A DNA stretch of 47,773 nucleotides from Candidatus Woesearchaeota archaeon (GCA_003650545.1 QMQO01000005.1:1-47773); one strand, 5' to 3'; positions 29,009 through 47,773 are shown, counted from the stretch's first letter. The notes: generated by a model from the letters alone, not told the origin. Program-made: numbers and translations.

Positions 29009-29121
29009 ATAAAATAAAATTGGGTTATATTTTTTTGTTAAAAAATCTAGTTTTTTAGATATTCTGTTATCATGTTATTGGCTGCTTGAAGATAAATTCT
29101 TGAAGACAAGTAGAATGTTTA

Positions 29122-29580
29122 TTATATAGGTGTGCTAACTGTTGGTATATCTTCATAAACAGGTGCACCAGTTGTTATAGAAATTCTAGGTGCTGAGCCT
29201 GATCTGCCTCCAGGGAAAACTGCTGAGCCAATAGCATAACCAACAGTGGCAATGCCTCCATAAACGCCGTATGCACTCAAACCAGCACCTGCGACACCTC
29301 CTGTCGCAACAACAGCAACTACTGCAACAATAGCCATAATTATCCCACCAAGACCACCAGAACGTCTGCAGCAGTAGACAACACTCGTTCCTGTCCAATG
29401 ATTTTGCATGACTCTTAAATTGTCTGTTTTTGATTTAGCCATGGTGAGATAAAATGTGTGCTTATGATCTGGATAATAGCAATCTTCACAATGGCCGTTA
29501 AGCCAACCAGCTGTTGAAAATGGTATGCTAAGTATTAAAATCATGATTACTAAAGCTTGAAATATCTTTTTATGTTTCAT
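29122..29580 (-). CDS. Small exported protein with a Gly/Ala-rich hydrophobic hairpin
   Basis: Signal peptide, HCEDC...CC, then GGLGGIIMAIVAVVAVVATGGVAGAGL...GYAIGSAV. Confidence 0.7.
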   Translation of the reverse strand: MKHKKIFQALVIMILILSIPFSTAGWLNGHCEDCYYPDHKHTFYLTMAKSKTDNLRVMQNHWTGTSVVYCCRRSGGLGGIIMAIVAVVAVVATGGVAGAGLSAYGVYGGIATVGYAIGSAVFPGGRSGSAPRISITTGAPVYEDIPTVSTPI

Positions 29581-30455: not shown

Positions 30456-33400
30456 ATGATGAGAAAAGCTCGTTTATTATTATTTTTAATGCTATGTTTA
30501 GTGATTTTTAGTTCTAGTGTGTTTGCAGGTTTTCCTGATTATTGTGATGTTCCTGCACTTAGAGGAGGTAATTGTTGTCAGCTTGTTGGTTGTTTGGATG
30601 TTAGCTCGGCTGGGGATTGTGGTTATTATTCTGGTAAGGGTGTCAGGGCAGTGGGAAAGCCAACACTAACAAGAAGAGGCGATGGTTTTAAGCTGAAGTA
30701 TGTTTATTTTGTGAAGGGGACAAGAGCATATAATTCAGAGATTGGTGTGATAAGTGCAGATGGTGGAGAGCAGGTGTTGGGTGTTAAAGGACAGGATAAA
30801 ACAATCAATATATTAAGTGGAGATAAACCAATTAATGTGGCTTTGGTTTATATTCATCTGCCAGGTAGTGGGGGAGAGGGTGAAGAGCATTTATATGTGA
30901 CGATCTACACAGAGCTCGATGAAGACGGGCTTATGGCTCATCTACAGCCAGAAGAGACAAATATAGATGCAAGGATGGATGAGTTTGTAACAGATGTGTT
31001 TACTCCTCCAGAGTCAGATGAGGATGACTATGTACTTAGTGAGGATTTTAGTTTTCAAAGTGATGGAACTCTGCATCCTGGTTCTCACTGTGACTATTAT
31101 TCTGGTCAGTGTGTAACTTTAGATTGTAGAGATGAAGACCAAGACTGTGTACCAGAATGTATAAACCCTGATGTCTGCCCTGGGCCTGGCGATAACTTGA
31201 GATGCGCAGACCATACCTTTGGTATGTTTGACCAGTGTCCTAATAGTGGTGGGCGTGATTTAACAAAAACAGCAGGATGCTATGACATTCCTTATCCAAT
31301 AGACACACCTGGCTGTATACCTAAGCCAGATGGATCATGGGATTGCTCGATGGTGGGAGCAGAAACACCGCATTATGTCCATGGAGAGGTTTTCTGGAAT
31401 AATATAAGACTTGAGAATATGGGTGATATCTATGAGGAAAATTATGTCGAAGATGATTTTCTAGAACATGATAAAGCTTATATGTCGCCTTTTGGAAGCA
31501 CCTTTACTTATAGGTTTGACATTGGTTGTTATACTTTAGATAACAAACTGAAACAGGCCTGCGCATACGAAGCACCTGCTAATGTTTACCATGCCTTGTT
31601 TTATGGTGAGTTTTCGAGTCGTTTGGTTTCGACAGGGAGAAACGGTAAGCCATTGCTCTGTAGCCAGCTAAGCAGTCAGCTTGGAGGCCTGAGTTTTTCA
31701 GGTGGAGAGATTATATATTGCGATCTTGACAAGGTCAATGCATTGAGGGCTGACGAGGATCGTGAGAGATGCCAGGGAATCGTCCAGACCATGTATAATG
31801 ATTGTGAAGTGACTGGTAACGCAGATACAACATGCACTCAAGAGGAAGGTAGTTCAAGCAAGTTTACATCTTATAGTGACCCATCATTGTATCCAATTGT
31901 TTATCTGCCAGACTCAGAGGATGTAAATGTTAAGAGGAAAGAGACAGTGTATGAGGATGGAACTTTTATGAAAAAAATTGGGGGTAAAATGGTTCCAAAC
32001 CAACGTCTGGTGTCGCAGAGGTGCTGCGGCGATGATCCTTTTTTGCAGGATACTGGAATGCTTGCAGGAGATAAAAAATATCTCTGCACTGTCTTTGGAG
32101 AGAATAAAGATGGCTATAACATGTATGGCTGGCTTGATTACTCGTTAAACCAAGGAAATATCTTTGATGCCTTTAACAGGAGTGCACGGGAGGCCCATCG
32201 CAAGTATAAGATTGAATATTCGACAGATCTAAATGATTTTCCTTGGAGAAGTAAGTTTAGCGCAACAGGAGATGTTCCTCATGCTTTTTGGAATATAGCT
32301 ACTTTTGATGACGAGCAGTGGTTTGATGATCCAATCATAGTAGATGATATCCCTGGAATAAACACCAGAGCAATCTGGGACAGAGAAGGCTTTGGAAAGC
32401 CAGGCTATGTTTTTCTAAGGGGTGTGTTCAATCTCCCAGAAAGAATAGAAAGTGATGAAAATATTTTTTTGAATGTGTCTGCAGGGGACGACTATTATGT
32501 TGAGATAAACGGAAATGTGGTGGCAGAGGGTAGTGGTTTTAATACCATAGATGTTTCGGGAACATTACAGCAAGGTTTGAACATAATTGCGGTAAAAGCG
32601 TATGATGAAGATGGCGTTGACCCTGGGTTTGCTGCGGTGTTGTATGGAACATATGTTGGGGTTAATCCCCTGGAGCCTGAGCTTTTTGATGTTGAGCACT
32701 ATCATATTCTTGCTGATGATGAAGGTTGGGTGGCCTGCGATGCTTACAATGACGGTGCAACTAATTTTGTTGGAGGAAGAGTGTTACAGGAGAGAGACAT
32801 AGAGGAGTATGCTGAAACAACGGTTGAGCCTGAAGTAGTGTTCCAATATATGTGCCATAGTAATGAAAGTGCAGAGTATATTGATTTGCGGAGAGGGATG
32901 GGGTTTACTGAATCAGAAAATTCTGGTGAGTTTTTTTCTGTGTGTTCAGATAAAGAGCTGGATAACAGCCCTAATAAAAATCCATTAACAAATTATAGCA
33001 ATAAAGACATAGGAGAATATATTGCCGCGGGAAATAATATCTATTATTGTGTGGAATATCTTGGCAGTTATGAATGGAGAGATAATCTTGATAATGAGTA
33101 TGTGGCTAGTGCTTGCAATGCCGCTGGCCATGAGTTTAATGGTAGGTATTTTGTTCACACAGGAAGTAAATGCTGTGGCGAAGATTTTTTCAAGGGCGAA
33201 GCTGGCTATCTTGAATATTATAATGATGATATTGCTTCTCGCTACCAGCTACCTTCTGATTTTTTGTTGGGTGGGTGCTGGGCAAATGTGCCTGTGTGGA
33301 GCGATACAAGGTTATATGATTCTGCTAACTTTATCGTGAATGGTAATTTTAGCGATAATCCTGAAAAGGTTGGCTGGGTTGTTGATGATAATGTCAGATG

Positions 33401-35816
33401 GTATAAGATTGGAACTACACAAATGGTAGTGAAAAATAGGATTACGCCAGACGGATACTTTCTGATGATGGGTGATGATGATCTGCCCTCTTCAATCAAG
33501 ACTCGAGATTATATCCCTGTAAATGATATGGATTATTTTATTGAGGCGTCTGTGGCTGGAAAAGGACAAATCTTGAACTTCACTATTACATATTATGATG
33601 CTGAGTTTAATTATATGACTGAGGAAGTAATAGGCCCTGGGCTGATCGACGATGATGTTCTTTCTGAGATGCGGGATGAGGGTAATACTGGCTGGTATAG
33701 AGGAGAATGGGGATTTAGACCACCAGAAGGTACTTTTGCTATTAAGATCAAGGTAAATGTTGATGGTGATGTTTGGATAGATGACATATATATGCGGGGC
33801 AGTAAAAAAGTGATGAACTTTAAGGGCTGGTTCTATGGCTGTAATACCTCTGAAAGCAATCTTGCCTTAATGAATGAGACCAAGGATATAGGAGAGGCGC
33901 CTGACAATTTCTTGACTGATAAACCTCTTTTAAACCATAAAAACTTTTGCGAGTCAGTAAATACCTCACCTACAGAGTATGCGAACTTCTTCTGCTCTTT
34001 TAAGAATGGGGGAGAATGGAGTAGTGACGGGAGGGTGTTTGCTGATGGTTTCTCAGGGCAGACTGAGTATTATGCACCTTACCACCGTAACCAGTCAGCA
34101 AGCTTACCTAAACTAACAGAGCCAAGCACAAACCTAGAGCTTCAAGACAATGAATGTTGTCCTGTTGGTTATTGCTGGAATGGTACGGATTGTCTTGGAA
34201 ATGACGCGCCACATCCGCTAAACCCGACTATAGGCATGGTGTGGGATGCTGCAGGGATTAGCATGAATATTGGCGAGATCATTGCAGAAGAAGGCTATAG
34301 GGATGGAGAACGTTGCATTAATGGAAGATGGACATGGCAACGCGTTAAGAAAGATTGGAACAATAAGCGCGAGGGGTATTGTGAATTCGATAGCCAGTGC
34401 TTGGTACATCCTGAAGGTGTCTATGTCCCAACAGGGAATCCTTATGATCTGGACGGATTCTCGAATCTAGAGAATTATGATGATTTTATTGAACATCCTA
34501 CATCTGGACAGTTAGAGATAACACCTGCGTGCATAAACGATTCTTTTTTTATAAGGGATCATTACTGTAACAATGGAACCTGGACAACAAGGACAAAGTT
34601 GATCGCATCCTACCTGATAAACATGACAGATGCAAACATGGACTTTGTGCTACACTGTGATGATTCTTTCCTTGCTCTAAATCCTGTACAAGGCTCGTTT
34701 ATACTTGATGTGGCTGACTATGGCTTTGTGAGGGGTGTTGATGAGAATTATTATAATAATTTCTGTACCCTAACATTAAATCCTGGTTCACAAGAACAAG
34801 TGGTGGTTGGGAGCTCGATAAACCAGCTTTTGCCAACAAAAGATACAGCAGATGCTGATATAGGACAAAGATCTGTCTTTAGATCTTACCTAGTAAAAAC
34901 CGAAACCACATTGGGGAACAGGATAGAAGCAAAACATTGTGATGCTGCGATTGAAAATCCATTTATGAACTATACTGGCTGTGACATGGAAAAAGGAGAT
35001 ATCTGGTTTAACAATGCGACACAGTCAATACTTTACTCTAACAAAGAGATCAGTCCAGTTTCAATTTCCTGGCTTTATGACTATATTGATAATCTTGCTA
35101 ATTTTGGGCTAACAGGAAAGGCTCAACAGATTCTGGGGATAGATGTCAACCTGACTGCATACGCGTTTGACAAACTTTATGTTAATCATAGAGCAGATGG
35201 ACGCAGAGTTATTGGTTACTTTGCAAAGGCAGGCGAGAAGGATTATTACATGATCAATTTTACTGGCTTTGGCGTGAACCTCACTAGGTTTGCGGCTGGT
35301 CTTGGCCACGAGGTCGAGGAGCTGCTTAATGTAGAAGATAACATGATTGTGAGCAAACAGGGAAGTTACGAGAGCCTATCGCCTCTCTGGATCAAGCTGA
35401 CGGCTCATCTACGACTTGGGTTGCTAGAAGGAGAGGAAACAGTGGAAGAGGAAGAAGGGCTTACAGGCGATGAGTATTATTGTGATACAACAGGCGGAGT
35501 TTGGGTGGATGCAGGTAATTGTGAAGATACCTGTAGTGCAATGGTTGATGCACAGGGTTGCGTTACTCTGACAAGCTCTGGCTGTGATTGTGGTCCAGGT
35601 AGGTGCTGGGATGGACAGAGATGTATTGATGATGATGAGGCGTGGAGCGGGAGATGTGAAGCAGAGGGAGGAATCTGGAAGACAAATGACCAAGATGCAT
35701 GCACATTTTACTGTATTCCTGGAAAATGCGCTTCACAGATATTTAAAGGCTGCGACTGTGGCATTGGCAGATGTTGGAATGAAACTATAAATAAATGCCA
35801 ACCAAGATTTACATAA
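30456..35816 (+). CDS. Giant secreted Cys-rich protein with probable carbohydrate-binding jelly-roll domains
   Basis: Signal peptide ending VFA; W...FDDEQW...RAIW...FLRGVF...DDYYVEING...LQQGLNIIAV (glycosidase-associated jelly roll-like); NFIVNGNF...VWIDDI (CBM4/9-like); duplicated C-terminal Cys module. Confidence 0.85.
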   Translation: MMRKARLLLFLMLCLVIFSSSVFAGFPDYCDVPALRGGNCCQLVGCLDVSSAGDCGYYSGKGVRAVGKPTLTRRGDGFKLKYVYFVKGTRAYNSEIGVISADGGEQVLGVKGQDKTINILSGDKPINVALVYIHLPGSGGEGEEHLYVTIYTELDEDGLMAHLQPEETNIDARMDEFVTDVFTPPESDEDDYVLSEDFSFQSDGTLHPGSHCDYYSGQCVTLDCRDEDQDCVPECINPDVCPGPGDNLRCADHTFGMFDQCPNSGGRDLTKTAGCYDIPYPIDTPGCIPKPDGSWDCSMVGAETPHYVHGEVFWNNIRLENMGDIYEENYVEDDFLEHDKAYMSPFGSTFTYRFDIGCYTLDNKLKQACAYEAPANVYHALFYGEFSSRLVSTGRNGKPLLCSQLSSQLGGLSFSGGEIIYCDLDKVNALRADEDRERCQGIVQTMYNDCEVTGNADTTCTQEEGSSSKFTSYSDPSLYPIVYLPDSEDVNVKRKETVYEDGTFMKKIGGKMVPNQRLVSQRCCGDDPFLQDTGMLAGDKKYLCTVFGENKDGYNMYGWLDYSLNQGNIFDAFNRSAREAHRKYKIEYSTDLNDFPWRSKFSATGDVPHAFWNIATFDDEQWFDDPIIVDDIPGINTRAIWDREGFGKPGYVFLRGVFNLPERIESDENIFLNVSAGDDYYVEINGNVVAEGSGFNTIDVSGTLQQGLNIIAVKAYDEDGVDPGFAAVLYGTYVGVNPLEPELFDVEHYHILADDEGWVACDAYNDGATNFVGGRVLQERDIEEYAETTVEPEVVFQYMCHSNESAEYIDLRRGMGFTESENSGEFFSVCSDKELDNSPNKNPLTNYSNKDIGEYIAAGNNIYYCVEYLGSYEWRDNLDNEYVASACNAAGHEFNGRYFVHTGSKCCGEDFFKGEAGYLEYYNDDIASRYQLPSDFLLGGCWANVPVWSDTRLYDSANFIVNGNFSDNPEKVGWVVDDNVRWYKIGTTQMVVKNRITPDGYFLMMGDDDLPSSIKTRDYIPVNDMDYFIEASVAGKGQILNFTITYYDAEFNYMTEEVIGPGLIDDDVLSEMRDEGNTGWYRGEWGFRPPEGTFAIKIKVNVDGDVWIDDIYMRGSKKVMNFKGWFYGCNTSESNLALMNETKDIGEAPDNFLTDKPLLNHKNFCESVNTSPTEYANFFCSFKNGGEWSSDGRVFADGFSGQTEYYAPYHRNQSASLPKLTEPSTNLELQDNECCPVGYCWNGTDCLGNDAPHPLNPTIGMVWDAAGISMNIGEIIAEEGYRDGERCINGRWTWQRVKKDWNNKREGYCEFDSQCLVHPEGVYVPTGNPYDLDGFSNLENYDDFIEHPTSGQLEITPACINDSFFIRDHYCNNGTWTTRTKLIASYLINMTDANMDFVLHCDDSFLALNPVQGSFILDVADYGFVRGVDENYYNNFCTLTLNPGSQEQVVVGSSINQLLPTKDTADADIGQRSVFRSYLVKTETTLGNRIEAKHCDAAIENPFMNYTGCDMEKGDIWFNNATQSILYSNKEISPVSISWLYDYIDNLANFGLTGKAQQILGIDVNLTAYAFDKLYVNHRADGRRVIGYFAKAGEKDYYMINFTGFGVNLTRFAAGLGHEVEELLNVEDNMIVSKQGSYESLSPLWIKLTAHLRLGLLEGEETVEEEEGLTGDEYYCDTTGGVWVDAGNCEDTCSAMVDAQGCVTLTSSGCDCGPGRCWDGQRCIDDDEAWSGRCEAEGGIWKTNDQDACTFYCIPGKCASQIFKGCDCGIGRCWNETINKCQPRFT

Positions 35817-35945
35817 GTACATAACATAATAAGTATAATAACCAAACATCAGAATAACCAAACTAAACAATGTCAAATAAAATGAAAACAATAAACAATG
35901 AAAATCAAATTAACTAGAACTAAAAAAGAATGAAAAGTGAAAATC

Positions 35946-38165
35946 ATGAAACACAAGGGACAGATGACATTTTTCATGATCGTGGCAATAGCCCTGCTTA
36001 TGCTATTTGCGATTATATACTTTATATCAGTAAAAACAAAAACAGTGAGGCGGACTGAGATGTTGGATGTATTAGATGTAAGAAATTATATGGAAGCTTG
36101 TGTCAGGAATGTGTTGAATGATGGAATAGAACTGTTGAGCAAGCAGGGCGGTTACATATATAAATATCAGAATGGAAGCACTGAATGTTGTCCGATCAAG
36201 ATAATTGTAGAAGACCCCCAGACTGGGAGACAACGCGAATTCACTTTGGAAACTGTAGAGTATAGCGACTCTAGAGGCGAGTATAATGTTTCTTTTTCAC
36301 TGTATGCGCCATATATTCCTAACCCGGTTAATCTTTACCCTAGTCCACCAAATTATTTAGGTTATGTGATAGCGCCAATGCTGAAGAAAACCCTAAAGCC
36401 TGGGTTTTTGTCTGTACAGGATCAACTTAAATATTACCTGAACAATTCTGTTGGTGTTTGCCTAAAACAAGCGCAAGATGTGTTCAATAGTACTTATGAT
36501 TTTATAGTTTCAGAAGGAACACCAGTTCTAAATGTTTCAGTTTTCTTGAACAGGATTGATGCTGTTTTGAATCTTCCTGTGGTTGTCGGCAGAGGTGGAG
36601 AGGTTAAGACCTTAAAACGGTTTGGTGTTACATCTGATGTGCGTCTTGGTTTGGTTTACTCGTTGTTGTTCGAGTTGAATCCTGATGTTACTGACAGACC
36701 AGTAATGAGGAGGGATGCGTCTGAGGCTGATTTTGACATAACAAAGCCTGAGGTTTTTGAGGGTGTTGGTATAGAGGGTATTAGTGTTGGAAGGTATGAT
36801 GCCAGCACCTATGATGTTATTGTTGTTGAAGATAACAGGCATATATTGAATGGACAAAATTATCGTTTCTATACTGCTCGCGAAAATAGACCGCCTGTAG
36901 TAGCGCCTTACCAGGTGCAGGAATATGGGGTTGATTATTTTGTTACAGCTGGTGATACAATAGATATCAAGACATTGGCAGTTGATCCTGATGAGGATAA
37001 CATAACAGTGAAGATAAATGGTTGGGGAGCTGACTATTGTAATGTTGAACCGATGCATTTAGAGTTATGCGGACAGCCTTATCTGGACTATGTTGGGTTC
37101 ATGTATTTTACAGAGGGTGATGAATATGAACCTAGGCCTCAAAGTTGCAAATCTGGTTTTGAAAACATAGCAGATATCACAGATGGATATGTAGGTAGTG
37201 ATGATGTTCAGTTGCTTTGTGTTAATAAAAGCTATAAAGATGATGTTGGTCTAACTTCTCGAGATCCATCAACCAAACCATCTTGTCCACCTGGTTGTGA
37301 AGAAGCTGGCGAGGTCAGTAATAAGAATTGTGATTATGCTCATTCCTATTGTAATAGATTACTCTGTATTAAGAGCAGTAGCCCCATAGCTGGGAAGGTT
37401 AAAATAACAGAACCTAGCAAGCATGAAGATAAGCCTGAGTGTCCTGATGGTTTTAGAGCATATTCTTATATAAAGGATTGCGGTGCTGGCATTTGTCATG
37501 GCGATCAAACCCTTTGTCTGGGCCAGATTGAGTTGATGGCACCTGCGTCTGGCTGGGTTAAAGATGAAAACGGCTATCATTACGAAACCAAAAATGAGGA
37601 TGCTATAAAAAGTGAGATTTTTATTAATGCGACTGATCCTGCAGGCACAAGCGACTGGAGCATGTTAAGTATTATTGTGAATGATGTTCCAGAGCCAATG
37701 ATTATTCCTGTATACAATGATAAATGTAGATATGATTACAAACTTAAAGATAATTCTTTTTTCTTGCAGTTAGATGCTGGTGATAGGATTCCACAGTTAC
37801 CTCCAGGTGGTGTAGAACCCTATACTCAAGAAGGATATAAAATGGATATAAGTTGTACTGCAGGTAATACTGCAGGTAATGTAGAAGTTGTGGTGCAGCC
37901 ACCACCTCCTTATTCTAGGTCGTCTAAAATAGTGCAACTACAATTTAAGAAAAATGGAGTGGTGATTAGTGATGCAGAAATTGATAATCTTCGATGCGAG
38001 CTTGATGTTACTGATCCTTATGGCGCAAGAGAAAGTTCCGGATTTCAAATAGACAAAATCTGCGCTGCTAATTGTGGAGATCAATGCAGTATAGAGTTTG
38101 GTTTTGAGGAAACAGAAGTATCAATACCTGGAGTTTACAATTGTGAGGGAGAATGCATACCTTAA
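35946..38165 (+). CDS. Large Cys-rich protein with a class III (archaeal pilin-type) signal peptide
   Basis: MKHKG|QMTFFMIVAIALLMLF; VRNYMEACV...LSKQGGY; cadherin-like NRPP...DPDED; Cys-rich triplet repeat. Confidence 0.82.
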   Translation: MKHKGQMTFFMIVAIALLMLFAIIYFISVKTKTVRRTEMLDVLDVRNYMEACVRNVLNDGIELLSKQGGYIYKYQNGSTECCPIKIIVEDPQTGRQREFTLETVEYSDSRGEYNVSFSLYAPYIPNPVNLYPSPPNYLGYVIAPMLKKTLKPGFLSVQDQLKYYLNNSVGVCLKQAQDVFNSTYDFIVSEGTPVLNVSVFLNRIDAVLNLPVVVGRGGEVKTLKRFGVTSDVRLGLVYSLLFELNPDVTDRPVMRRDASEADFDITKPEVFEGVGIEGISVGRYDASTYDVIVVEDNRHILNGQNYRFYTARENRPPVVAPYQVQEYGVDYFVTAGDTIDIKTLAVDPDEDNITVKINGWGADYCNVEPMHLELCGQPYLDYVGFMYFTEGDEYEPRPQSCKSGFENIADITDGYVGSDDVQLLCVNKSYKDDVGLTSRDPSTKPSCPPGCEEAGEVSNKNCDYAHSYCNRLLCIKSSSPIAGKVKITEPSKHEDKPECPDGFRAYSYIKDCGAGICHGDQTLCLGQIELMAPASGWVKDENGYHYETKNEDAIKSEIFINATDPAGTSDWSMLSIIVNDVPEPMIIPVYNDKCRYDYKLKDNSFFLQLDAGDRIPQLPPGGVEPYTQEGYKMDISCTAGNTAGNVEVVVQPPPPYSRSSKIVQLQFKKNGVVISDAEIDNLRCELDVTDPYGARESSGFQIDKICAANCGDQCSIEFGFEETEVSIPGVYNCEGECIP

Positions 38166-41100
38166 TGATGAAAAACAAAAACTGGATGATTGCATTTGCA
38201 TTGCTAGTTTTATTGTTGTTTGTTAGCTATGTTAATGCTGGATGTTGTCAAAAGATTGATGGCACTTGTGTTCCTGTTGCTTATAGTGAAGAATGTATAG
38301 GTACTTATTCTGGACTAGATTGTGAACAGCTACTAATGTGCCAGGAGAAATGTTATGTTTTTCAGTTAGCTGGAACTAATAATCAGAGTTGTGAATGGAT
38401 AACAGATGCAACCAAGGACTATTATGTTTCAAATGGTCCGTATTTTTCAAGTCTCTATTTTTCCATACTTCAACCAGGAATATATAACAGAGAGGGTTGT
38501 CTGGATGTTTGTGTCAGTGGCGAGGTTCAGATTTGTCCGTCAGATGGGTGTTTTCCTGACACAGGCGGGTATTATAAGAATTGTGTGTTCTACCAGGATT
38601 GTCGTGGCCCAGACGGAGTAAGAGGTGGAATAGATTGTTGTCCTAGTGGTTATGAATGTAATCAGGCTCCGGATGGTGTCTGGAGATGTACAACCCCTAC
38701 CTGTATTCCTGAGTATGTGTGTGACGATATAAGAGATTGTGGACCAGGCATTGAGACGGGTTGGTGCAATACATGGAGACAGATCAATGTTTGTGATCGT
38801 CCAGATATACCAGCTCCAGAACCAGGCGATCCTGTAGCTTGTCCTGCGCCAAATCTTTGCAGCGAGCTGGGAAGATGCTATATAGATCCAGATACAGGAG
38901 AAAAGTTCATATGTTGGTATGTTGAGGGGGTTGGTCTTTCCCTAGTACCTGCTGCTGATACAGAATCTGTTCAAGGTGATCTGGAAAAGACAATGATGCT
39001 TTGTCATGATAACTTTGATAATGATTGTGATGGCATGATTGACTGTGATGATATTGGTGATCAAGGTCAACCAGATTGTGGGTTGGTTCTAGCTAGTGTA
39101 ACTGAGGATCCGAACACACCTTATGATGATAATTGTAATGGTGAGATAGACGATTTTCCAGGATCGCATTGCTATAACAATATTAGGGATGAGGGTGAGC
39201 TGGGGATTGATTGTGGTGATCCTGAAAATCTATGTGGTGATTGTTGCGAGAATGCTTATGCTGAAGTGGGAAGTTACAGTAATGGGCTTTATTATTATGA
39301 TATATTTCCTCCCATAGAAGATTATTCTTTTACTCCAGAGGTTGCAGAGACTGGCTTTAATTGTGGTGGTGCCTGCCTTAACAAGCCTTATCCTCAGAGA
39401 TGTCCTATTGGTAGTGGATGTAAAACAGATGCAGACTGTAACCAAGACATAGCTGGGTTTGCAGGTGAAGCTGAAGTCAGATGTGTCAAGGAACAAGGAA
39501 GCGAGTTTGGTTTATGCAGCTTGTGTATTGATAGGGATGGTGACGGCTATAACTCAACAGCAAGCATTGGTTTGTGCGGAGATGTCCTAGATTGTAATGA
39601 TAACAATATTCAAGCAGCAGTGCCAGGAGACCCTGGTTGTGTTGGGGTGTGCACAGACATAGCTGTTACTGGCTTGCAGGCAAAACCAATAAGATTTTCA
39701 CCTAAAATCAGGATAACATGGCTGCAGCCTAGCTGTCCAATAGACCACATACAAATCACAAAAAGGAACCCTTCTGGCAGTTCTGAATTTATTGAGGTTC
39801 CTGCTAATCAATTTGAGTATATTGACACGATTGATCAGCCAAAAAGTGTGTATAAATATTCTGTGACGATATTTTATAAAGATGGCCAAACAGCATACTC
39901 AGACGAGGTTTCAATCACAAGTAACATAGATGGTCGTGACATAACCTCTGGAGAGTTGTTCTGCTTTCAACCAAGAAAAGAGTTCTGTGTGAATGACGCA
40001 AGGATGGAATGTGACGAGGATAATTTTTATTCAGATCCGCCAATCGAGGTTTGCCGTGATCCTCCTGCAAAGAATAAAATATGCCGCGGACCAGATGTAA
40101 ACGGAGACACAATGTGTGTTGAGATTGCTAGATGCGATAAATGTAATGAACCATTTGGTGTGTTTGCAGAAGGCGGCAGAACACTATGGAAACCGCCAGG
40201 AGCTTTTGGCGAGCAAAATATAGATTGCAGTCAGGTGGATAGCTGCTATATTGATAGACTGAACTCAACAGTGAATGCTTATAAAAGCTGTGAGTTTGTC
40301 CAGAGCTGCTATGACTATGTTAGTAAGGAAGCTTGCGAGAAAAATAAGTGCGATGTGGGTCTTACTGCAAGGTTTGGAAAGAAATGTGAATGGTTGCAGA
40401 ACCCAGAATTTGCAGAACTTGGTGCAGGTATATGCAGGCCAGTAAACGAGTCTGAGTGGGACTGTCATGCATGCGAGCGTTTAGATAGTTTGCTGATAGG
40501 GGGATGCTCAAGAAGCAACTGCCAGTTGTTTGGCGAATGTTACTTTGCTAACAGGAATATATATGATGTTAATGGAATTGAAAAGCCATGGAGCTGCCGC
40601 AGCAAAGAAGAAACAGGATGCCAGTTCTACACAAATGAACAGGATTGTGTAAACTCGAGTTCGCCATTCTCAAAAGCAGGAGAACAACAAGTGGGTGGAG
40701 AATCAAATGTGTTTGCTACATGGCTCAGGGAAGATCATTCTGATAAGAGGGTTGGCGGAAGCCATGCTTTCTTGGACAGAAGCGATGATTATTTTAATTT
40801 TGGAACTTGTAAATGGGATGATGTGAGTGGGTGCTATAAAGATGCAAACAATAAAACTAATTCAACATATGGCGATCTGGAGAAGGATTGTAATGATTAT
40901 GATTACCTTTGTATCTGGGATAATACACCACCAACAACAACTCTTGATACTAATGGTGTTGTTGGCAGAGATATGCAGATGCTGTATCATGTAAACGAAC
41001 CTGCAACCACATATTTTTGTCTAACAAGAAGTGGCTTTTGCTACCCCAACAGAACCAGTGGGGATATAACAACAGCTGGCGTGTTCAGCCACATCTTTAA

Positions 41101-44100
41101 CATGAACGATGGTGGTTACTGGAACCTTTGGTATTATTCAGAGGATTATGGTGTGTATGCGCCGCATGGTAATCTTGAGCTTGTTAAGAATAGAACTATT
41201 TTTGTTGATACACTTGTGGGACCACTTGATTTTCACTTCTCATATGAACCAAGCTTGGTTGGTGTGGATACCTATGTTTCAACCCTGTTTGTAACGGTTA
41301 ATGCATCTGACCCTAACAAGATAATGTGCTTTTTTATGCTGCATAATTCTTCAGGGGCCAGAATGAAAGACCAAGCAGATATACAACCGTTTGAAGAGAA
41401 TTTTACTCTTGACTTAGTTTATCCTGGCTTGAAAGATGGTATTTACTATTTAAATTATACATGTGTTGACGGTGTTGGTAATGTCCTAAAAGGGAGAAGG
41501 GACACAAGAATAGACGGGGATCTTAGTATTTCCAATCCACAACCAAGCTGGACCATTAACTATAATCTTGAGGATGGTGCGATCCCGATCAACATCACAA
41601 CACAGAACAGAGCAGTGTGGTGTAAGTATGGCTTTGGTAAGGATGCTGAGCCTAGCTTTTTGTTTGATACAAGTGAAGATGGAAAATTTCATGAGAAGGT
41701 TCTGACAGGTGTTAATACGCCAACATATCTGCGTGGAACAAATGAGATTGTTTATATAAGGGTTAAGTGTAATGTTACAACTAGCCGCGGCTTTAAGTTA
41801 GCAGGGATGAATACAGCAGACGATATCATCTTTGCGATTGACAAGACAGGACCAGTAACAGAGGTTGTGGATGCATCGTCTAATAAACCAGCGGCTGTAT
41901 CGGGCTTGTTTAACCATCCTGTTGATTTGAGGCTTAAATGTTATGATGTGCCTATAACCAACTATGGTTTTCCAGACAAGGCGTTTGGCTGCGCGAACAT
42001 AACCGCGTGTATAAACGGTCAGTGTTCAACCCTGCCGCCTGTATGTGACGAGGAAAATTGTTTGACAGGTGGTTATAGACAACTACCAACAATATATGAT
42101 ACAACAACTATCACATATTACTCTACTGATAAAGGCGGAAATACAGGGAATGTAACCGAAGATGTCATAAGGGTGGACATGCAGCCGCCTGAGTTTGATT
42201 TTGAGGTTCTTGATCTGGATGGAGAGGTAGTTGACATAATAGGCACAGGGTACCACCTGATTAATGTAACTGCATCTGATAATAACGGTCAGATATCTTC
42301 GATACCAAGCAAACCGAAGATTACCATTAGTTCACGGTCTGGCTTGGTTCCAACAAGAAATTACACTTTAGAGAATAACATGTTTGTGTCTATAGATCCA
42401 ATGCCTGATGATATTGAGACTGAGGTTGAGGTTACTGTGTCTGGGTATGATCTGGCAGATAATCTTGGGAGCCGAACAAAGTATTACATGGTTGATACCA
42501 AGAAACCTGCTCCAGTGACTTTCATGCCAGCCTTTGACACTTTCATGAAACGTGATGCGCATGATCCTTATAGATATTACACAAACAGAAGCTGGTTTGT
42601 CTCAGGGAAAACATCAGAAAATAACCTAACGATAACTTTTTACATAGCAAATGATGAACATGAACTTATTAACATCTCAAGCTATAACCAGAAGATTATT
42701 GTTGGAGATAATAAGCCTATATCTCCTGTTGTACCTCCTGTAGTATCTCCTGCAACTCAAGCATCGCATGGTGTTAATTTTTACCAGGCTACAGGAATAG
42801 AAGGCGAGAATACGATAAAAACAAACAAACTTGTTAGCTTGGATCATCTTCAAGAAGGGAATTATGTATTGCTGGATGTAGACGGGTTTAGGAGGGATTA
42901 CAGGCATTATGGCTGGTATCACAAGATAACAGGTGTGAGCGATGTTGGTAACAATTACATTGTTACATTAGAAACGCCACTGACAAAATCATTTCAGAGC
43001 CCAGAACCGTTTTATATATACAAAAAAGAAATACCTGAAAAATGGTTTGGTGACGAAACAAACCTTGCTCTGGGAGAGAATATATTCTTTGCTAATGTGA
43101 CAGACCAGGCAGGAAATATTGGAAAAGGACAAGTTTATGTTTTCTTGGTGGATCAGGAAGCGCCTGTGTTGGATTTTGTTTACCCTGGAATTGGAGAGAT
43201 GATTAATGAAAAAAATGTAATCTTTGATGTCCGCGTTAAAGACCTTAAGAAGGGATCAAGGGTCGACCAAAATAGCATAAAAGTTTTGTTTGATGGTGTT
43301 GATGTCGAAAACTTTACATTGAGTGCTGTTGCAGGAAACCCAAACTATGATGTTGTTAAGATTAGCTTTAAGAAGAAGAATCTTGAATATGGAACACATA
43401 ATTTGAGTGTGAATGCAAGGGATAATGCGGGTAACATAATCGCAAGAGATTGGGGGTTTGAAATTGTCGATGTTCCAGCAAAACCTATTATGAGCTTTTT
43501 AACTATAGCAGCAGGGAATCCGTATGCAATAGATGGAAAAGAAACGTATTTCCTTGCAACAGACAGTAACTTTACTCTTAGTTTTAAAGAAGATAGGATT
43601 AAACTTAACAATGTAGCAGTAGATGGTTCTCCACTAGACTGCTTTAACACTAGCTTGAATGTGTTCAAATGTGAGCTGCTAACATCAGAAGGCTCTCACA
43701 TAATAAATGTCAAAGCTCAGTATTATAATAGCAGCTTTGAATTAAGCGAGGAAGGTAACTATAATTTTTATGTTGTAAAAGATATCGCGGCTCCTGAGTT
43801 TACTCTTGATTACAAAAGCAAAGCTAGACCTAATAGCACCCTTAGGATAACCGCAAATGTGTTGAACGAGGAACACGATGTTCTGATGTTTTTGAATTTT
43901 TCAAATCATTTCCCTCGGATCTATCAGCAATTCTATAGGCTAGATTGGGCTGTGCCTAATCTAGCTGATGGATCCTATATTTTTCCTGTCACAGCAACAG
44001 ATCATGCAGGAAACCAGAAAACAGTAAACATGACAATCGAGATTGACCAGGGATTGCCTGTTTTTAACATAACTGATGTATTGGTGCATGGATTTAACAG

Positions 44101-44440
44101 AATATTAAGGTATACAGTTGTAGGAACAGTTAACTACAGAACAAATGCTTTCTTTGTGGATATCTTAGGAGATATTGTTTCTGAAGATGTAAATCGTATC
44201 ATAGCACAAAACATCGAAGACATGGATAATACTCTGAGAGAAGGAAACATAACGGATGATAGGTTTAACATAACAGATGTAAACATCTTTAGCAGCCAGG
44301 GAGAAGATAAACTGAATCAGATAGTTGTTACTGCAATAGATGAGATTGATAATAGGGCCAACAAGACATTAAATATTTATCAGGATATTATTGGGCCGCA
44401 AAACCCAAATGTTACAATTATAGAGCAGGTGCTTGGGTGA
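38165..44440 (+). CDS. Giant secreted Cys-rich, FN3 and Ig-like repeat protein
   Basis: Signal peptide ending VNA; DNDCDGMIDC and CIDRDGDGY...DCND acidic motifs; FN3-like segment; repeated D.(A/G)GN...D...P Ig-like units; TAATG coupling to the upstream gene. Confidence 0.87.
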   Translation: MMKNKNWMIAFALLVLLLFVSYVNAGCCQKIDGTCVPVAYSEECIGTYSGLDCEQLLMCQEKCYVFQLAGTNNQSCEWITDATKDYYVSNGPYFSSLYFSILQPGIYNREGCLDVCVSGEVQICPSDGCFPDTGGYYKNCVFYQDCRGPDGVRGGIDCCPSGYECNQAPDGVWRCTTPTCIPEYVCDDIRDCGPGIETGWCNTWRQINVCDRPDIPAPEPGDPVACPAPNLCSELGRCYIDPDTGEKFICWYVEGVGLSLVPAADTESVQGDLEKTMMLCHDNFDNDCDGMIDCDDIGDQGQPDCGLVLASVTEDPNTPYDDNCNGEIDDFPGSHCYNNIRDEGELGIDCGDPENLCGDCCENAYAEVGSYSNGLYYYDIFPPIEDYSFTPEVAETGFNCGGACLNKPYPQRCPIGSGCKTDADCNQDIAGFAGEAEVRCVKEQGSEFGLCSLCIDRDGDGYNSTASIGLCGDVLDCNDNNIQAAVPGDPGCVGVCTDIAVTGLQAKPIRFSPKIRITWLQPSCPIDHIQITKRNPSGSSEFIEVPANQFEYIDTIDQPKSVYKYSVTIFYKDGQTAYSDEVSITSNIDGRDITSGELFCFQPRKEFCVNDARMECDEDNFYSDPPIEVCRDPPAKNKICRGPDVNGDTMCVEIARCDKCNEPFGVFAEGGRTLWKPPGAFGEQNIDCSQVDSCYIDRLNSTVNAYKSCEFVQSCYDYVSKEACEKNKCDVGLTARFGKKCEWLQNPEFAELGAGICRPVNESEWDCHACERLDSLLIGGCSRSNCQLFGECYFANRNIYDVNGIEKPWSCRSKEETGCQFYTNEQDCVNSSSPFSKAGEQQVGGESNVFATWLREDHSDKRVGGSHAFLDRSDDYFNFGTCKWDDVSGCYKDANNKTNSTYGDLEKDCNDYDYLCIWDNTPPTTTLDTNGVVGRDMQMLYHVNEPATTYFCLTRSGFCYPNRTSGDITTAGVFSHIFNMNDGGYWNLWYYSEDYGVYAPHGNLELVKNRTIFVDTLVGPLDFHFSYEPSLVGVDTYVSTLFVTVNASDPNKIMCFFMLHNSSGARMKDQADIQPFEENFTLDLVYPGLKDGIYYLNYTCVDGVGNVLKGRRDTRIDGDLSISNPQPSWTINYNLEDGAIPINITTQNRAVWCKYGFGKDAEPSFLFDTSEDGKFHEKVLTGVNTPTYLRGTNEIVYIRVKCNVTTSRGFKLAGMNTADDIIFAIDKTGPVTEVVDASSNKPAAVSGLFNHPVDLRLKCYDVPITNYGFPDKAFGCANITACINGQCSTLPPVCDEENCLTGGYRQLPTIYDTTTITYYSTDKGGNTGNVTEDVIRVDMQPPEFDFEVLDLDGEVVDIIGTGYHLINVTASDNNGQISSIPSKPKITISSRSGLVPTRNYTLENNMFVSIDPMPDDIETEVEVTVSGYDLADNLGSRTKYYMVDTKKPAPVTFMPAFDTFMKRDAHDPYRYYTNRSWFVSGKTSENNLTITFYIANDEHELINISSYNQKIIVGDNKPISPVVPPVVSPATQASHGVNFYQATGIEGENTIKTNKLVSLDHLQEGNYVLLDVDGFRRDYRHYGWYHKITGVSDVGNNYIVTLETPLTKSFQSPEPFYIYKKEIPEKWFGDETNLALGENIFFANVTDQAGNIGKGQVYVFLVDQEAPVLDFVYPGIGEMINEKNVIFDVRVKDLKKGSRVDQNSIKVLFDGVDVENFTLSAVAGNPNYDVVKISFKKKNLEYGTHNLSVNARDNAGNIIARDWGFEIVDVPAKPIMSFLTIAAGNPYAIDGKETYFLATDSNFTLSFKEDRIKLNNVAVDGSPLDCFNTSLNVFKCELLTSEGSHIINVKAQYYNSSFELSEEGNYNFYVVKDIAAPEFTLDYKSKARPNSTLRITANVLNEEHDVLMFLNFSNHFPRIYQQFYRLDWAVPNLADGSYIFPVTATDHAGNQKTVNMTIEIDQGLPVFNITDVLVHGFNRILRYTVVGTVNYRTNAFFVDILGDIVSEDVNRIIAQNIEDMDNTLREGNITDDRFNITDVNIFSSQGEDKLNQIVVTAIDEIDNRANKTLNIYQDIIGPQNPNVTIIEQVLG

Positions 44441-44652
44441 GGTTTGAGCATGACAGCAAATAAGGCGCAAAAATAATATGATGAAAATGCAAGGAGAAGA
44501 AAAAAGCCAAGGAGAAGAAAAAAGGTTGAATGAAAATTGTAAAAATAATTGTGTAAAAATAGATGATTCAAATCAATGGTAAAAATAAATGATATAAAAA
44601 ATGATGTAAAAAAATGATGCAAAAATAAACATGAAAACATGAAAATGTGAGT

Positions 44653-47600
44653 ATGAGTGTTAGAATGAGTGCAAAAATGAAGACCAACATTAACATGATG
44701 CCTAGAGCGATGCGAATGTTCATTTTGCTGGCTGTAGCTCTATGCTTTACACTATGCTTTACAATGCTTTGCTTTACTGTTCATGCACAAGACATACCTG
44801 TTTTTGAGAGTAACTTTTCGATGCCTATCATAAGGCTGAGGTATGATGAACCGATTTCTGTACTAGACTTTAATCTAACGGACAGGTCAGGTGGAAGGGT
44901 TCCTGCTCATATAGAGACTCTTGATAACATCACGCTGGATATCGTGCTAGAGAGACCTCTGCATAATAGCGACTACCTGTTGACAGTGCGTGCAGAGGAT
45001 CTTCTTGGCAATAAGGGTTTTGTTGATATTTACAAGATTTTAATAAGTGCAGAATTCTTGTCGATAGACTTGCTCTACCCTAGGTTTGGCTATGCTCCTA
45101 GAGAAAATATAACAGTCAAGGTTAGAACAAATATTGACTCGAGATGCGCGATAGGTGGTGCGGATCTTCCGTTTGAGGTGTTGCAGCAGATGTCAACACC
45201 ACAGGGTATAATACATCAGACTGCAACAACGGTTTTTGAAGGGAGTGTTAAGTATATCAAATGTAAGGATGTTGAATACGGATATCTGGCAACCAAAATA
45301 GTTACATTCCATATAGATGACACTCCGCCAAGGATACTAGATTACGGTGCATCGCCGCAGGTTGTACAAGAGCTAACAAGAGCTCCTCCGAGAGGGGCGG
45401 CTGTTGATTTCTACATTGAGACAGACGATTTAGCTGTATGTAAGTTTGATGCTCTTAACAATACCTTTGATTCAATGGCTCTTACAGGAGATGACATTAA
45501 TGGTTCTTATTTCATGGAGGAAGATGAAACAAAAGAAGAAACATATAAACATCTGCATAGATATCGCTTATTTCTTCCGTCGGATAAGAGATCCTATTCG
45601 TATAGTGTGGTGTGTCGCGGATTAAATGGCTTAGACTCAGATGATGTTAGGCTTGACTTTAGTGTGGATATTTCAGCAGAGCTTACAGCGAACATACTGA
45701 GTCCATCTGCATTCACAGGCGATCCAAACATAACATTGTATGTTGTGACAAGCAAACGTTCAGAGTGTTACTTTAATGAAGGTGCTGGCTATGAATCATT
45801 GCCTACAGACGATCTTTATACACACGTGGTTTACTTGGGTGAGAAGGAGGAGGGAGAGCATAATGTAATTGTAAGATGCTCAAGTTTAACAACAAACGAG
45901 ATTGCTACTGTGTCGCACAGCTATGTTGTGGACCTCACGCCGCCTGAATTAGAAGAAGTGGTGTTGTCTGATGTTAGAAATCATTCTTCTACAGAAAAAA
46001 CCTACTCAAAGAAGTTCAGGATAGAGTTTAGGCCTAGAGAGGCTGACAAAGCAAGCATAGCTGGTTATAACTTTACTATTTTTGATAGCTCAGGCAGGCA
46101 GGTAACAGGCTGGATATTTACAGAAAATGATGTTATAAGCGACACAAGGAGAGACGGCATTAAACTGAACTTTACTGACGGTGCTGGATTTAGGGTGAGG
46201 GCTCAAGCAATAGATAAATTCTCTAGGTATGGCGAGTTCAAGGATAGTAGCACTATCGTATATGAACCAAGAGGTGTGCCAGAGCATTGCGTGAATGGTG
46301 TCATGGATGAAGATGAGACTGGTGTTGATTGTGGTGGTGTAGATTGTGAAGCCTGCCCTGAAGACATAACATGCCATTCAGATTCTGATTGTGAGTCTGG
46401 TTATTGTGATGTGAGCATTGGTGTCTGCAGAGAAGCAAGCTGCACAGACAACAAGAAGAATGGTTTTGAGACAGATATCGATTGTGGAGAGGTGTGTGAG
46501 CATCTTCTGGGAGAGGAAGGTTTATGCGGGCTGGGGCTTGAGTGCGAGAATGATTACGATTGCAAGAGCAATCTTGCTTGTGCGGACTGGATTTGTTCAT
46601 TGCCAACATGTTCAGATAATTCTTCTAGGAGTAATGCTAGTCATAGCGAGACAGATGTTGACTGTGGTGGAACATGTGTGACATTATTTGGAAAAAAATG
46701 TGAAGATGGTAAAGGATGCGATTCGGATAGTGACTGTGCGAGTGATTTCTGTAAGGCTGGTGTGTGTACAGCAGCCTCGTTAAAAGATTCAGATGGCGAT
46801 GGAATGAACGATGGATGGGAGGATGAACATGGACTGGACAGGTTTAATCCTGATGATGCCAGGCTTGATCCAGATAGTGATGGATTAACCAATCTTGAAG
46901 AGTTCAAGCTTGGAACAGATCCAAATAATGCAGATAGTGATGGTGATGGTTGGAAAGATGGGAAAGAGGTTGAAGAAGGCACTAGTCCAGTAGATCCTCT
47001 CGAACATCCTAAGTCAATGTTGTTGACTTATATTTTCTTGATTTTAGGGATCATGATTGTTGGAGGAGCTATTGCATTCTTGATAAAGATGAAACCATGG
47101 GCAAAGAAAGCCCCGGCTGCGCCCAGACCTGTTATCCCCCCAATAATTGCGCCCCCTCCGAAGAAGCCCGAGCTAACACCTGAGCAAAGGGCTGCGATAG
47201 AGAGGGCTAGACTGATAGAAGAAAAGAGGCGCAGGGTTAGGGAAGAGAAAAGAAAGAAAAGAGAGGCTTTCCTCGAGCGGTTTGGACCAAGCAGAGAAGA
47301 GGCAAGAAAAAAGAAGATAGAGGAGTTAAAGAAACCATTAGAAGAAAGAGGTGGCTGGATGCCATTGGCAAGTTTAAGAGAACGCCTGAAGCTAAGAAGA
47401 GTTAAAAAAGACAAAACATTTGAACGTTTGGCTAGACTTGGTAAAAGACCTGTCAAACCTGTCAGACCTGTCAAACCAGTTGGACTCAAACCAAAGCCAG
47501 AAAAAATCAAGCCTGAAAAAGTAGTCAAAGCTAAGCCGTCAGCTAAGCCAGAAGAAGTTGAAACAAAAGAGATAGAAACAGTGTTTGAAAAACTAGAGAA

Positions 47601-47773
47601 ACTAGGCAAGAAAGAGAAGAGGGCTTTCGAAAGACTTGAAAAACTGAAACCAAGAATCAGGAAAGAAAGTTTAGAAGAACTTGGTGAGAAAATTAAGAAC
47701 GACCTGAAACCAAAAGAAAAAAAAGTTTTCAAAAAATTAGAGGATCTAGGAAAATTCAGGAAAGCAAGAAAAA
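44653..47773 (+). CDS. Large type I membrane surface protein (Ig-like, ETDVDCGG Cys repeats, bacterial TSP3-like Ca-binding repeats, TM, Pro/Lys/Glu-rich tail); 3'-truncated and missing from the ORF track
   Basis: Frame +1 read by hand is open from ATG 44653 to the window end (>1040 codons). Contains ETGVDCGG, ETDIDCGE and ETDVDCGG; DSDGDGMNDGWE...DPDSDGLTNLEEFKLGTDPNNADSDGDG; TM at about 47020-47083. Exact start uncertain among several ATGs. Confidence 0.9.
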   Translation, partial: MSVRMSAKMKTNINMMPRAMRMFILLAVALCFTLCFTMLCFTVHAQDIPVFESNFSMPIIRLRYDEPISVLDFNLTDRSGGRVPAHIETLDNITLDIVLERPLHNSDYLLTVRAEDLLGNKGFVDIYKILISAEFLSIDLLYPRFGYAPRENITVKVRTNIDSRCAIGGADLPFEVLQQMSTPQGIIHQTATTVFEGSVKYIKCKDVEYGYLATKIVTFHIDDTPPRILDYGASPQVVQELTRAPPRGAAVDFYIETDDLAVCKFDALNNTFDSMALTGDDINGSYFMEEDETKEETYKHLHRYRLFLPSDKRSYSYSVVCRGLNGLDSDDVRLDFSVDISAELTANILSPSAFTGDPNITLYVVTSKRSECYFNEGAGYESLPTDDLYTHVVYLGEKEEGEHNVIVRCSSLTTNEIATVSHSYVVDLTPPELEEVVLSDVRNHSSTEKTYSKKFRIEFRPREADKASIAGYNFTIFDSSGRQVTGWIFTENDVISDTRRDGIKLNFTDGAGFRVRAQAIDKFSRYGEFKDSSTIVYEPRGVPEHCVNGVMDEDETGVDCGGVDCEACPEDITCHSDSDCESGYCDVSIGVCREASCTDNKKNGFETDIDCGEVCEHLLGEEGLCGLGLECENDYDCKSNLACADWICSLPTCSDNSSRSNASHSETDVDCGGTCVTLFGKKCEDGKGCDSDSDCASDFCKAGVCTAASLKDSDGDGMNDGWEDEHGLDRFNPDDARLDPDSDGLTNLEEFKLGTDPNNADSDGDGWKDGKEVEEGTSPVDPLEHPKSMLLTYIFLILGIMIVGGAIAFLIKMKPWAKKAPAAPRPVIPPIIAPPPKKPELTPEQRAAIERARLIEEKRRRVREEKRKKREAFLERFGPSREEARKKKIEELKKPLEERGGWMPLASLRERLKLRRVKKDKTFERLARLGKRPVKPVRPVKPVGLKPKPEKIKPEKVVKAKPSAKPEEVETKEIETVFEKLEKLGKKEKRAFERLEKLKPRIRKESLEELGEKIKNDLKPKEKKVFKKLEDLGKFRKARK

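Follow-up and report, generated by a model that had tools for sequence, protein, structure and literature searches.

Four Co-oriented Genes for Cysteine-Rich Surface Proteins

The DNA analyzed here (the window) is the entire 47,773 bp contig QMQO01000005.1 (C5) of a Candidatus Woesearchaeota archaeon (GCA_003650545.1), an uncultured member of the DPANN with tiny cells, whose assembly comprises 1.64 Mb in 133 contigs and is 85% complete. From 30.4 kb to the contig end it carries four co-oriented plus-strand open reading frames (ORFs), g1, g2, g3, and g4, which encode large surface proteins and are the subject of this report (Table 1). Throughout, G000 denotes the analyzed genome, labels of the G002–G060 type denote genomes of relatives, and C1, C5, and the like denote contigs. 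The relatives are 60 genomes of the same order, one per family; a wider set of 200 genomes, 153 from the same order and 47 from other orders of the class, was used for profile searches.

ORF calls and Kyte-Doolittle hydrophobicity scans, on which all topologies given here rest, agree with the number, sizes, and topologies that an initial annotation of the window had assigned to the four genes. The N-terminal segment is the sole hydrophobic stretch in both g1 and g3, so both look secreted and anchorless. The richness in cysteine and N-x-S/T sequons noted in that annotation is also borne out by comparison with 857 ORFs of ≥200 aa in the genome: Cys makes up 3.2–4.4% of g1–g4 (median 0.97%; 94.5th–97.5th percentile), and sequons number 1.08–1.72 per 100 aa (median 0.42; 86th–95th percentile). 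The layout appears operon-like, with an overlap of 13 nt between g2 and g3, no run of ≥5 T in either intergenic spacer, and a TATA-like CTTTATATAT ∼45 nt upstream of the g1 ATG.

The protein families of the locus are absent from Pfam, NCBIfam, and PDB. Searches of PDB chain sequences with g1–g4 returned no match, NCBIfam added no family, and paralogs within the genome are limited to short Cys-rich or TSP3 segments on C4, C8, and C6. The domain types first proposed are partly upheld: immunoglobulin-like (Ig-like) and Ca-binding repeats exceed their Pfam cut-offs, which at the domain level places g3 and g4 with Ca-stabilized Ig-like repeat adhesins, while the fn3-like match falls below its own, and carbohydrate-binding module (CBM)-like domains drop out, since Pfam and NCBIfam place no CBM-type, substrate-binding-protein, or glycoside hydrolase family in g1–g4. 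The surface-layer (S-layer) families S_layer_N and S_layer_C are likewise absent among g1–g4 hits at E ≤ 0.1. Apart from the Ig-like and TSP3 repeats, no Pfam domains are common to the four proteins.

The Gene Order Is Conserved across the Order

Large surface proteins are common in this genome, for which six-frame translation (spurious frames kept) yields 92 open frames of ≥700 aa that begin with M, a large share of them with signal peptides; size alone is therefore not special, and it is the conserved order that sets g1–g4 apart. Matches to g1, g3, and g4 are found in 28, 22, and 51 of the 60 relatives, respectively (E ≤ 1e-5), and to g2 in 52 (E ≤ 1e-3). By hand count, ∼39 of the 60 have at least two of the four families side by side, co-oriented, and following the sequence g1-g2-g3-g4. 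A single contig holds all four in G002, G007, G013, G026, G032, and G045; in G039 they are spread over a contig break. The C-terminal module conserved in g1 (g1C) was detected in 109 genomes, and in at least 74 of these a full-length match to the conserved N-terminal domain (N-domain) of g2 is found directly downstream of it, on the same strand and within 6 kb (hand count). Order and orientation recur across many families, so the grouping does not fail for want of synteny, and g1–g4 are a conserved unit, not a chance neighborhood.

A Pilin-like Block Probably Continues the Locus on a Second Contig

In G016, G025, G007, G013, and G002, g4 is followed by 4–12 small genes on the same strand; the N termini that they encode consist of K-[G/A]-Q or K-K-G and then a hydrophobic helix. 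The order g1, g2, g3, g4, p1–p4, in which p1–p4 are the four core pilin-like genes of the block, is found in all five; in G000 it is split, with homologs of p1–p4 at the very start of C1 (44-3120) in the same order as after g4 in the relatives. The window therefore appears to hold only half of a ∼35-kb order-specific locus, with g1–g4 on C5 and the block on C1 as its probable two halves, and the cluster does not end with the window's four genes, as first delimited, but runs on beyond the window edge. At the start of C1, a frame with a Lys-rich end is closed by a stop codon immediately ahead of the ATG of p1. Of the 60 relatives, 43 have a single copy of p2, and in 38 of these it lies at most ∼4 kb downstream of a g4 match, on the same strand; in the other five, p2 is on a different contig from g4 (G050, G011, and G060) or on the opposite strand (G036), or g4 is absent (G014). 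A relaxed screen for class III (prepilin-type) signal peptides retains 91 of 1881 frames genome-wide, with 12 on the plus strand in the first 16 kb of C1. A strict screen retains only 25 frames in the genome, with g2 the sole one on C5.

The M23 and SLT genes at C1:15615-19334 encode bacterial-wall hydrolases in an archaeon. Farther along the contig, ∼35 kb past the pilin block, an 844-aa open frame (C1:54670-56994) matches Pfam S_layer_C above cut-off and is likely the S-layer gene of G000; S_layer_N has no match in this genome.

Table 1. Coordinates of g1–g4, their parts, the pilin-like block on C1, and the left border of the locus (window positions unless a contig is named)
Feature	Position	Strand	Basis or remarks
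RNase P p30-like gene	21112..21768	+	Pfam RNase_P_p30; syntenic left border of locus in relatives
g1, secreted giant protein	30456..35816 (ORF opens TTG 30426)	+	1786 aa from ATG, 1796 aa from TTG
g1 Sec-type signal peptide	30456-30527	+	hydrophobicity scan
g1 variable Cys-rich N-terminal part, residues ∼35-800	30528..32825	+	comparison with 60 relatives
g1C, conserved C-terminal module, residues 1190-1680	33993..35465	+	alignment A2
g1 C-terminal Cys-rich tail, residues 1686-1791	35481..35798	+	14 Cys in last 96 residues
g2, class III (prepilin-type) signal-peptide protein	35946..38165 (or from 35937)	+	739 aa from ATG 35946; 739-742 aa
g2 leader MKHKG and hydrophobic helix	35946..36029	+	predicted cleavage before Q: MKHKG, then QMTFFMIVAIALLMLFAIIYF
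g2 conserved N-domain, to residue ∼368	36030..37040	+	alignment A1
g2 variable Cys-rich C-terminal part, residues ∼446-742	37275..38162	+	comparison with relatives
g3, secreted giant protein	38153..44440	+	2095 aa
g3 signal peptide	38153-38239	+	hydrophobicity scan
g3 fn3-like segment, residues 505-588	39665..39916	+	19.2 bits, below Pfam cut-off 25
g3 best-scoring Big_13 Ig-like stretch, residues 1935-1966	43955..44050	+	whole-protein 46.1 bits vs cut-off 27
g4, type I membrane protein, cut by contig end	44647..47773	+	signal peptide, ectodomain, transmembrane helix, cytoplasmic tail; >1042 aa
g4 Cys-rich repeats, residues ∼544-720	46276..46806	+	partial paralogs on C8 and C6
g4 TSP3-type Ca-binding repeats, membrane-proximal	46804..47016	+	Pfam TSP3_bac, 3 stretches, E 1.9e-8, 34.4 vs 25 bits
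g4 transmembrane helix, residues 791-815 (787-818 at looser cut)	47017..47091	+	hydrophobicity scan
g4 cytoplasmic tail, ≥227 aa	47092..47773	+	K 22%, R 12%, E 15%, P 11%; four F-x-x-L-x-x-L-type motif copies
p1, pilin-like	C1:44-562		homology with relatives' post-g4 genes
p2, pilin-like	C1:789-1931		homology with relatives' post-g4 genes
p3, pilin-like	C1:2013-2513		homology with relatives' post-g4 genes
p4, pilin-like	C1:2587-3120		homology with relatives' post-g4 genes
Further class III-like genes, including two short major-pilin-like ones	short ones: C1:4144-4554, 8876-9172		class III N-terminus
Peptidase_M23 protein, 484 aa, N-terminal hydrophobic anchor	C1:15615-17069		Pfam
SLT lytic transglycosylase, 754 aa, N-terminal hydrophobic anchor	C1:17070-19334		closes extended locus

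Conserved Bases and Variable Heads in g1 and g2

The division of g1, g2, and g3 into a conserved base and a variable head emerges from comparison with the 60 relatives. Conservation is confined to residues ∼1190–1680 in g1 and to residues 1–360 in g2. Residues 1–800 of g1 have no match at E ≤ 1e-5, the lowest matched residue being 801; g2 has none beyond residue 445, which leaves its part 446–742 unmatched; and residues 1–267 of g3 find only a weak match, in G002 alone. This modular build, with conserved bases and variable heads, explains why the four “orphan” giants have resisted annotation.

No Pfam, NCBIfam, or PDB sequence match was obtained for g1, and an ESM Atlas search with g1C gave nothing usable. 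The g1C alignment (A2) contains 20 invariant columns, 10 of them Cys. The profile built on it detects the module in 109 of the 153 same-order genomes, usually as a single match, and in 0 of the 47 from other orders. In 12 genomes of one family (f44), g1C occurs alone, as ORFs of 343–440 aa. We propose that it is a docking module. The Cys-rich tail that follows it has a single paralog in the same genome, at C4:16395-16745.

The g2 protein starts with a short basic leader ending in G, followed by a hydrophobic helix, as class III signal peptides do. All 13 aligned orthologs carry the motif K-[G/A]-Q, with Q invariant (alignment A1). Within the N-domain, QGG is nearly invariant, N-R-x-P is invariant, and there is an acidic motif of the DPDED type. 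The N-domain profile matches 35946-37037 in G000 (E 1.2e-100). At E ≤ 1e-10 it has matches in 187 of the 200 genomes, the strong ones being confined to the order, and the first 80 residues of g2 match many paralogs in the relatives. An AlphaFold2 (AF2) model of the N-domain (predicted local distance difference test, pLDDT, 66.7; predicted template modeling score, pTM, 0.64) comprises one helix spanning residues 5–69, β strands, and a second α/β unit. Pfam has no family for g2, and the ESM Atlas returned Woesearchaeota clusters only, at 0.83–0.85, below the trust level. Cysteines are concentrated toward the variable part, with 19 of the 25 after residue 400.

Another conserved class III family, of ∼700–830 aa and encoded elsewhere in each genome, shares the first ∼255 residues of the N-domain with g2 (G000 C1:76816 on the minus strand, C28:8325-12782, and C18:557-775; G016:C1:45845; G025:C1:674842; and others).

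g3-g4 Fusions Suggest a Possible Tether for g3

The first 500 residues of g3 are Cys-rich (49 Cys) and are followed by β-sandwich repeats. Conservation is confined to residues ∼500–1350 and 1550–2090. In the relatives, g3 proteins carry CarboxypepD_reg, Big_13, and Big_3 domains, and the length of g3-type proteins ranges from ∼1900 to 5898 aa. In five of six sequences of the family (window 38240-38248, G016, G025, G007, and G013) the mature N terminus is G-C-C, directly after the signal peptide; in G002 it is V-C-C. A vicinal disulfide, a metal site, and a lipid site are candidate explanations for this start.

Homologs of g4 align over residues 60–1042 and are 929–1253 aa long, so that few g4 residues are likely to be missing at the contig end. 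The protein is conserved almost throughout in the relatives, tail included. A separate homolog search with residues 50–560 gave nothing at E ≤ 1e-10 among word-sharing candidates, and Big_13 and PKD Ig-like scores for the ectodomains of the G025 and G016 homologs are weak, below their cut-offs. Nine of ten g4 homologs examined have a Lys-rich tail of 125–356 aa after the transmembrane helix, most of them ending in poly-Lys. Repeated motifs of the form hydrophobic-F-[DEK]-x-L-x-x-hydrophobic are recognizable by eye in most of these tails; a strict regular expression scored only 5 of 10. The conserved, motif-bearing tail suggests a cytoplasmic partner.

In at least four relatives, g3- and g4-like parts lie in one open frame: G002 (5898 aa), G013 (1986 aa), G017 (1983 aa), and G043 (1688 aa). 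The g4 part of the G002 fusion begins near g4 residue 60, just past the signal peptide. Of the arguments for a tethering of the anchorless g3 by the membrane protein g4, these Rosetta-stone fusions are the strongest at hand.

A Candidate Type IV Filament-Associated Adhesin Complex

We suggest, with a probability of roughly 0.6, that g1–g4 are part of a type IV filament-associated adhesin complex. The initial interpretation is supported in part; its view of one multi-subunit, pilus-associated, and uncharacterized unit is well supported at the genomic level, by synteny, the fusions, and the pilin-like block. Gene order, fusions, motifs, and modular conservation together suggest how processing, assembly, complex formation, and adhesion might proceed. 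Five class III proteins (g2 and p1–p4) would be cleaved by a prepilin peptidase of the PibD type and assembled into a short filament or tip complex by a type IV filament ATPase and platform pair encoded elsewhere, with the conserved N-domain of g2 contributing to the filament base. The anchorless g1 would dock via its conserved 480-aa C-terminal module. The g4 protein, as a membrane-spanning fiber, would hold the anchorless g3 and extend its own Lys-rich tail with the repeated motifs into the cytoplasm. The distal parts of g1, g2, and g3, which evolve fast, are rich in Cys, and would be disulfide-bonded and glycosylated, would contact the target, and the neighboring M23 and SLT murein hydrolases suggest a bacterial cell surface as that target. 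Read in this way from its genes, the locus is a good candidate for a device that grips other microbes.

Several observations weigh against this reading. Neither C5 nor the first 20 kb of C1 carries an ATPase or platform gene, and the complete genomes G016 and G025 carry their ATPase genes well away from the cluster. In favor of the reading, machinery is available in trans. Of the accessory genes that the initial annotation had sought nearby, those for the pilus ATPase and for Dsb-like functions are present in the genome, on other contigs: there are five T2SSE ATPase and six T2SSF platform matches in G000, paired on C11, C27, and C83, and disulfide formation is represented by a VKOR homolog on C49 and a DsbA-like thioredoxin on C9. 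The third, a PibD-type prepilin peptidase, was not found in the 85%-complete G000 assembly, either with the Pfam model for Peptidase_A24 or by tblastn with proteins of relatives (an A24-like ORF from beside the cluster and ORFs from three A24 loci). Since Peptidase_A24 is present in 57 of the 60 relatives, its absence from G000 is probably an assembly gap.

In the g2 model a long N-terminal helix precedes β strands, but fold searches with it found no pilin match (Foldseek, nothing at E ≤ 1e-3; best VIA Z 6.9, to unrelated chains). The AF2 model of g1C is of low confidence (pLDDT 57.8), mixed α/β, and not visibly a propeller, and a search with it found no fold match (best VIA Z 5.5). No adhesion domain of known specificity was identified in the locus. 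The cluster is not universal, in that the g1C profile was not found in 44 of the 153 same-order genomes; most of the 60 relatives outside those that keep all four families together are fragmented assemblies with parts of the locus on separate contigs; and there are exceptions to the order, with a g1-like match downstream of g2 in G024 and the inverted p2 of G036. The basis for joining C5 to C1 is synteny: the contig ends are A-rich and have no exact overlap, and the one public contig stops at the very base where C5 does, which leaves the junction unbridged.

A second, divergent Peptidase_A24 gene adjoins the cluster or lies within ∼10 kb of it in several relatives (G007:C11:94764-95795, G032:C1:63723, G026:C29:109202, G028:C1:374964, and G050:C4:38106). 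The G007 copy lies immediately upstream of g1. These cluster-adjacent copies may encode a dedicated prepilin peptidase.

Alternative Explanations

A core cell-envelope scaffold is the first alternative, in which g3 would form a canopy on a g4 membrane stalk, as in a two-component S-layer, and the pilin-like proteins would serve as anchors or insertion helpers with no extended filament. In Sulfolobales, the S-layer consists of SlaA and SlaB, a large anchorless secreted protein encoded beside a membrane-anchored partner, and the g3 and g4 genes share that arrangement, with the two parts sometimes fused. The families are also single-copy, order-wide, and fixed in position beside a housekeeping RNase P p30 gene; no dedicated ATPase accompanies them; and sequon density is high. 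SlaA and SlaB, however, have no sequence relation to g3 and g4, and G000 has a separate S_layer_C candidate on C1. A size range of ∼1900–5898 aa and unconserved heads would be unusual for a lattice protein, and g1C was not found in the 44 same-order genomes mentioned above. The long motif-bearing cytoplasmic tail of g4 is, to our knowledge, not a feature of S-layer stalks. We regard the scaffold as unlikely, though the most serious competitor of the adhesin complex.

It is improbable that g1–g4 act independently, as adhesins or other surface proteins whose genes happen to be grouped in a surface-protein island, and form no joint complex. The abundance of large open frames with signal peptides in this genome would fit such an island, as would the lack of shared domains beyond Ig-like and TSP3 repeats, but the conserved order and orientation extend over dozens of families, at least four genomes have g3 and g4 in one frame, and the adjacency of g1C and g2 (at least 74 of 109) and of g4 and p2 (38 of 43) is frequent.

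Very improbable, finally, is bindosome-like nutrient capture, with class III proteins tethering binding or degrading proteins and the M23 and SLT enzymes feeding on free peptidoglycan: the hydrolases at the locus end and the use of class III signals for substrate-binding proteins in Sulfolobus speak for it, but no transporter gene is seen among the annotated locus genes, and none of the protein families that it calls for (substrate-binding protein, CBM, or glycoside hydrolase) is present in g1–g4. A census of type IV filaments counts the bindosome among their subsystems (PMC13705601).

A far-reaching form of the adhesin complex would be a machine for host capture that is peculiar to Woesearchaeales and has its origin in type IV filaments. 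In it, a pilin-like base (g2 and p1–p4) carries two interchangeable, giant, disulfide-rich heads, a transmembrane fiber of g3 and g4 couples outside binding to a cytoplasmic partner, and the hydrolases open a bacterial host. We consider this speculative and decidedly doubtful. If true, it would include an outside-in link via the F-x-x-L-type tail of g4, of a kind not described for any archaeal or bacterial pilus system.

Relation to Known Systems

The closest layout among type IVa pili is the fimU-pilVWXY1E operon, in which minor pilin genes stand beside the PilY1 gene. The present locus resembles this module, and the GspH-K tip of the type II secretion system (T2SS), in having four to five pilin-like genes beside a large Sec-secreted non-pilin. 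As in the PilY1 module, one pilin-like member is large, and the secreted protein divides into a pilus-proximal module that is conserved and a distal part that varies. In contrast, there is no sequence or Pfam relation, and g1C is not recognizably a β-propeller; the locus is archaeal, has two giant partners and a membrane-spanning fiber with a cytoplasmic tail, and lacks an ATPase and platform in cis. The filament census describes a role of PilY in adhesion (PMC13705601).

The Epd pilus of Methanococcus maripaludis (“system 1”) is similar in that several class III proteins are co-clustered and co-oriented with adhesin-like proteins. Epd class III proteins also have Q after the cleavage site. 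The Epd cluster, however, carries its own peptidase and assembly genes, whereas the present locus carries none, and the likeness noted is one of layout. We know of no Epd counterpart of the giant Cys-rich partners or of g4. According to the same census, archaeal type IV filament systems are widespread except in Asgard and DPANN archaea, and system 1 occurs in few DPANN genomes (PMC13705601).

Among ultra-small bacteria, Omnitrophota encode giant TSP3/SLT surface proteins beside pilin-like genes, in T2SS-like loci with many small class III signal genes, as reported by West-Roberts et al. (2023, 10.1101/2023.11.21.568195). The cells are considered there probably predatory or host-dependent, with a proposed role for the giants in prey adhesion and wall digestion. 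Unlike g1–g4, these proteins are bacterial, exceed 10,000 aa, belong to unrelated families, and have GspD/E/F in cis. Saccharibacteria, ultra-small episymbionts, find and bind their bacterial hosts by type IV pili, according to two reports (PMC9894109, PMC11623550). Those pili are bacterial and experimentally shown, and they are not known to have comparable giant Cys-rich partners.

Within the same lineage, large extracellular SLT-domain proteins of Woesearchaeota and Pacearchaeota have been read as serving attachment to, or attack on, bacterial walls (main texts of Castelle et al., 2021, PMC8204110; Vigneron et al., 2022, PMC9723730), and an SLT protein closes the extended locus on C1. The main texts of both papers contain zero occurrences of “pili,” “pilin,” “adhesi,” or “surface protein,” and neither g1–g4 nor the gene order. 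A literature search turned up no account of this cluster; it did not extend to supplements, among them S10 Fig of PMC13705601, on DPANN loci, and the PMC8204110 family tables, which may bear on the matter. What appears to be new is the joining of g1–g4 on C5 and the pilin-like block on C1 as one locus.

The question addressed by this locus is whether and how the very abundant, uncultured Woesearchaeales contact other cells. A single-copy, order-specific locus that would join pilin-like proteins, giant variable heads, a transmembrane fiber, and murein hydrolases offers concrete targets, and the variable heads could mark host range.

Other Features of the Contig

Housekeeping genes of archaeal type make up the left part of C5 (aRF1, aIF5A, Hef, primase, CCA-adding enzyme, and RNase P p30). 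In G016, G025, G007, and G013, the g1-like genes are preceded by genes that share the N-terminal sequence type of the p30-like gene, while on C5 8.4 kb of variable genes (21919-30281) lie between the p30-like gene and g1. Since the p30-like gene stands directly before g1-type genes in the relatives, this segment is a variable insert. It carries further surface proteins and an AbiEii toxin-antitoxin pair: at 25934-27171 (minus strand), an AbiEii-type nucleotidyltransferase toxin gene is overlapped by an upstream 197-aa gene, the candidate antitoxin. At 23367-25669 (minus strand), a gene for a 131-aa class III-like protein (MNKKAS and a helix) overlaps by 4 nt a gene for a 636-aa Cys-rich secreted protein, forming a second, small set of a pilin-like protein and a Cys-rich partner upstream of g1.

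Elsewhere in the window, the aRF1 gene (4007-5545; eRF1 domains 1–3) is split by an intein (Intein_splicing/Hint, residues ∼177–325). A Pycsar effector-like PycTM protein is encoded at 2233-2793 (minus strand); the adjoining gene encodes a kinase of the diacylglycerol-kinase/YegS type, and no cyclase family was found in that gene. At 16531-17883, a single 450-aa ORF matches the Pfam models of both the small and the large DNA primase subunits, consistent with a fused PriS-PriL.

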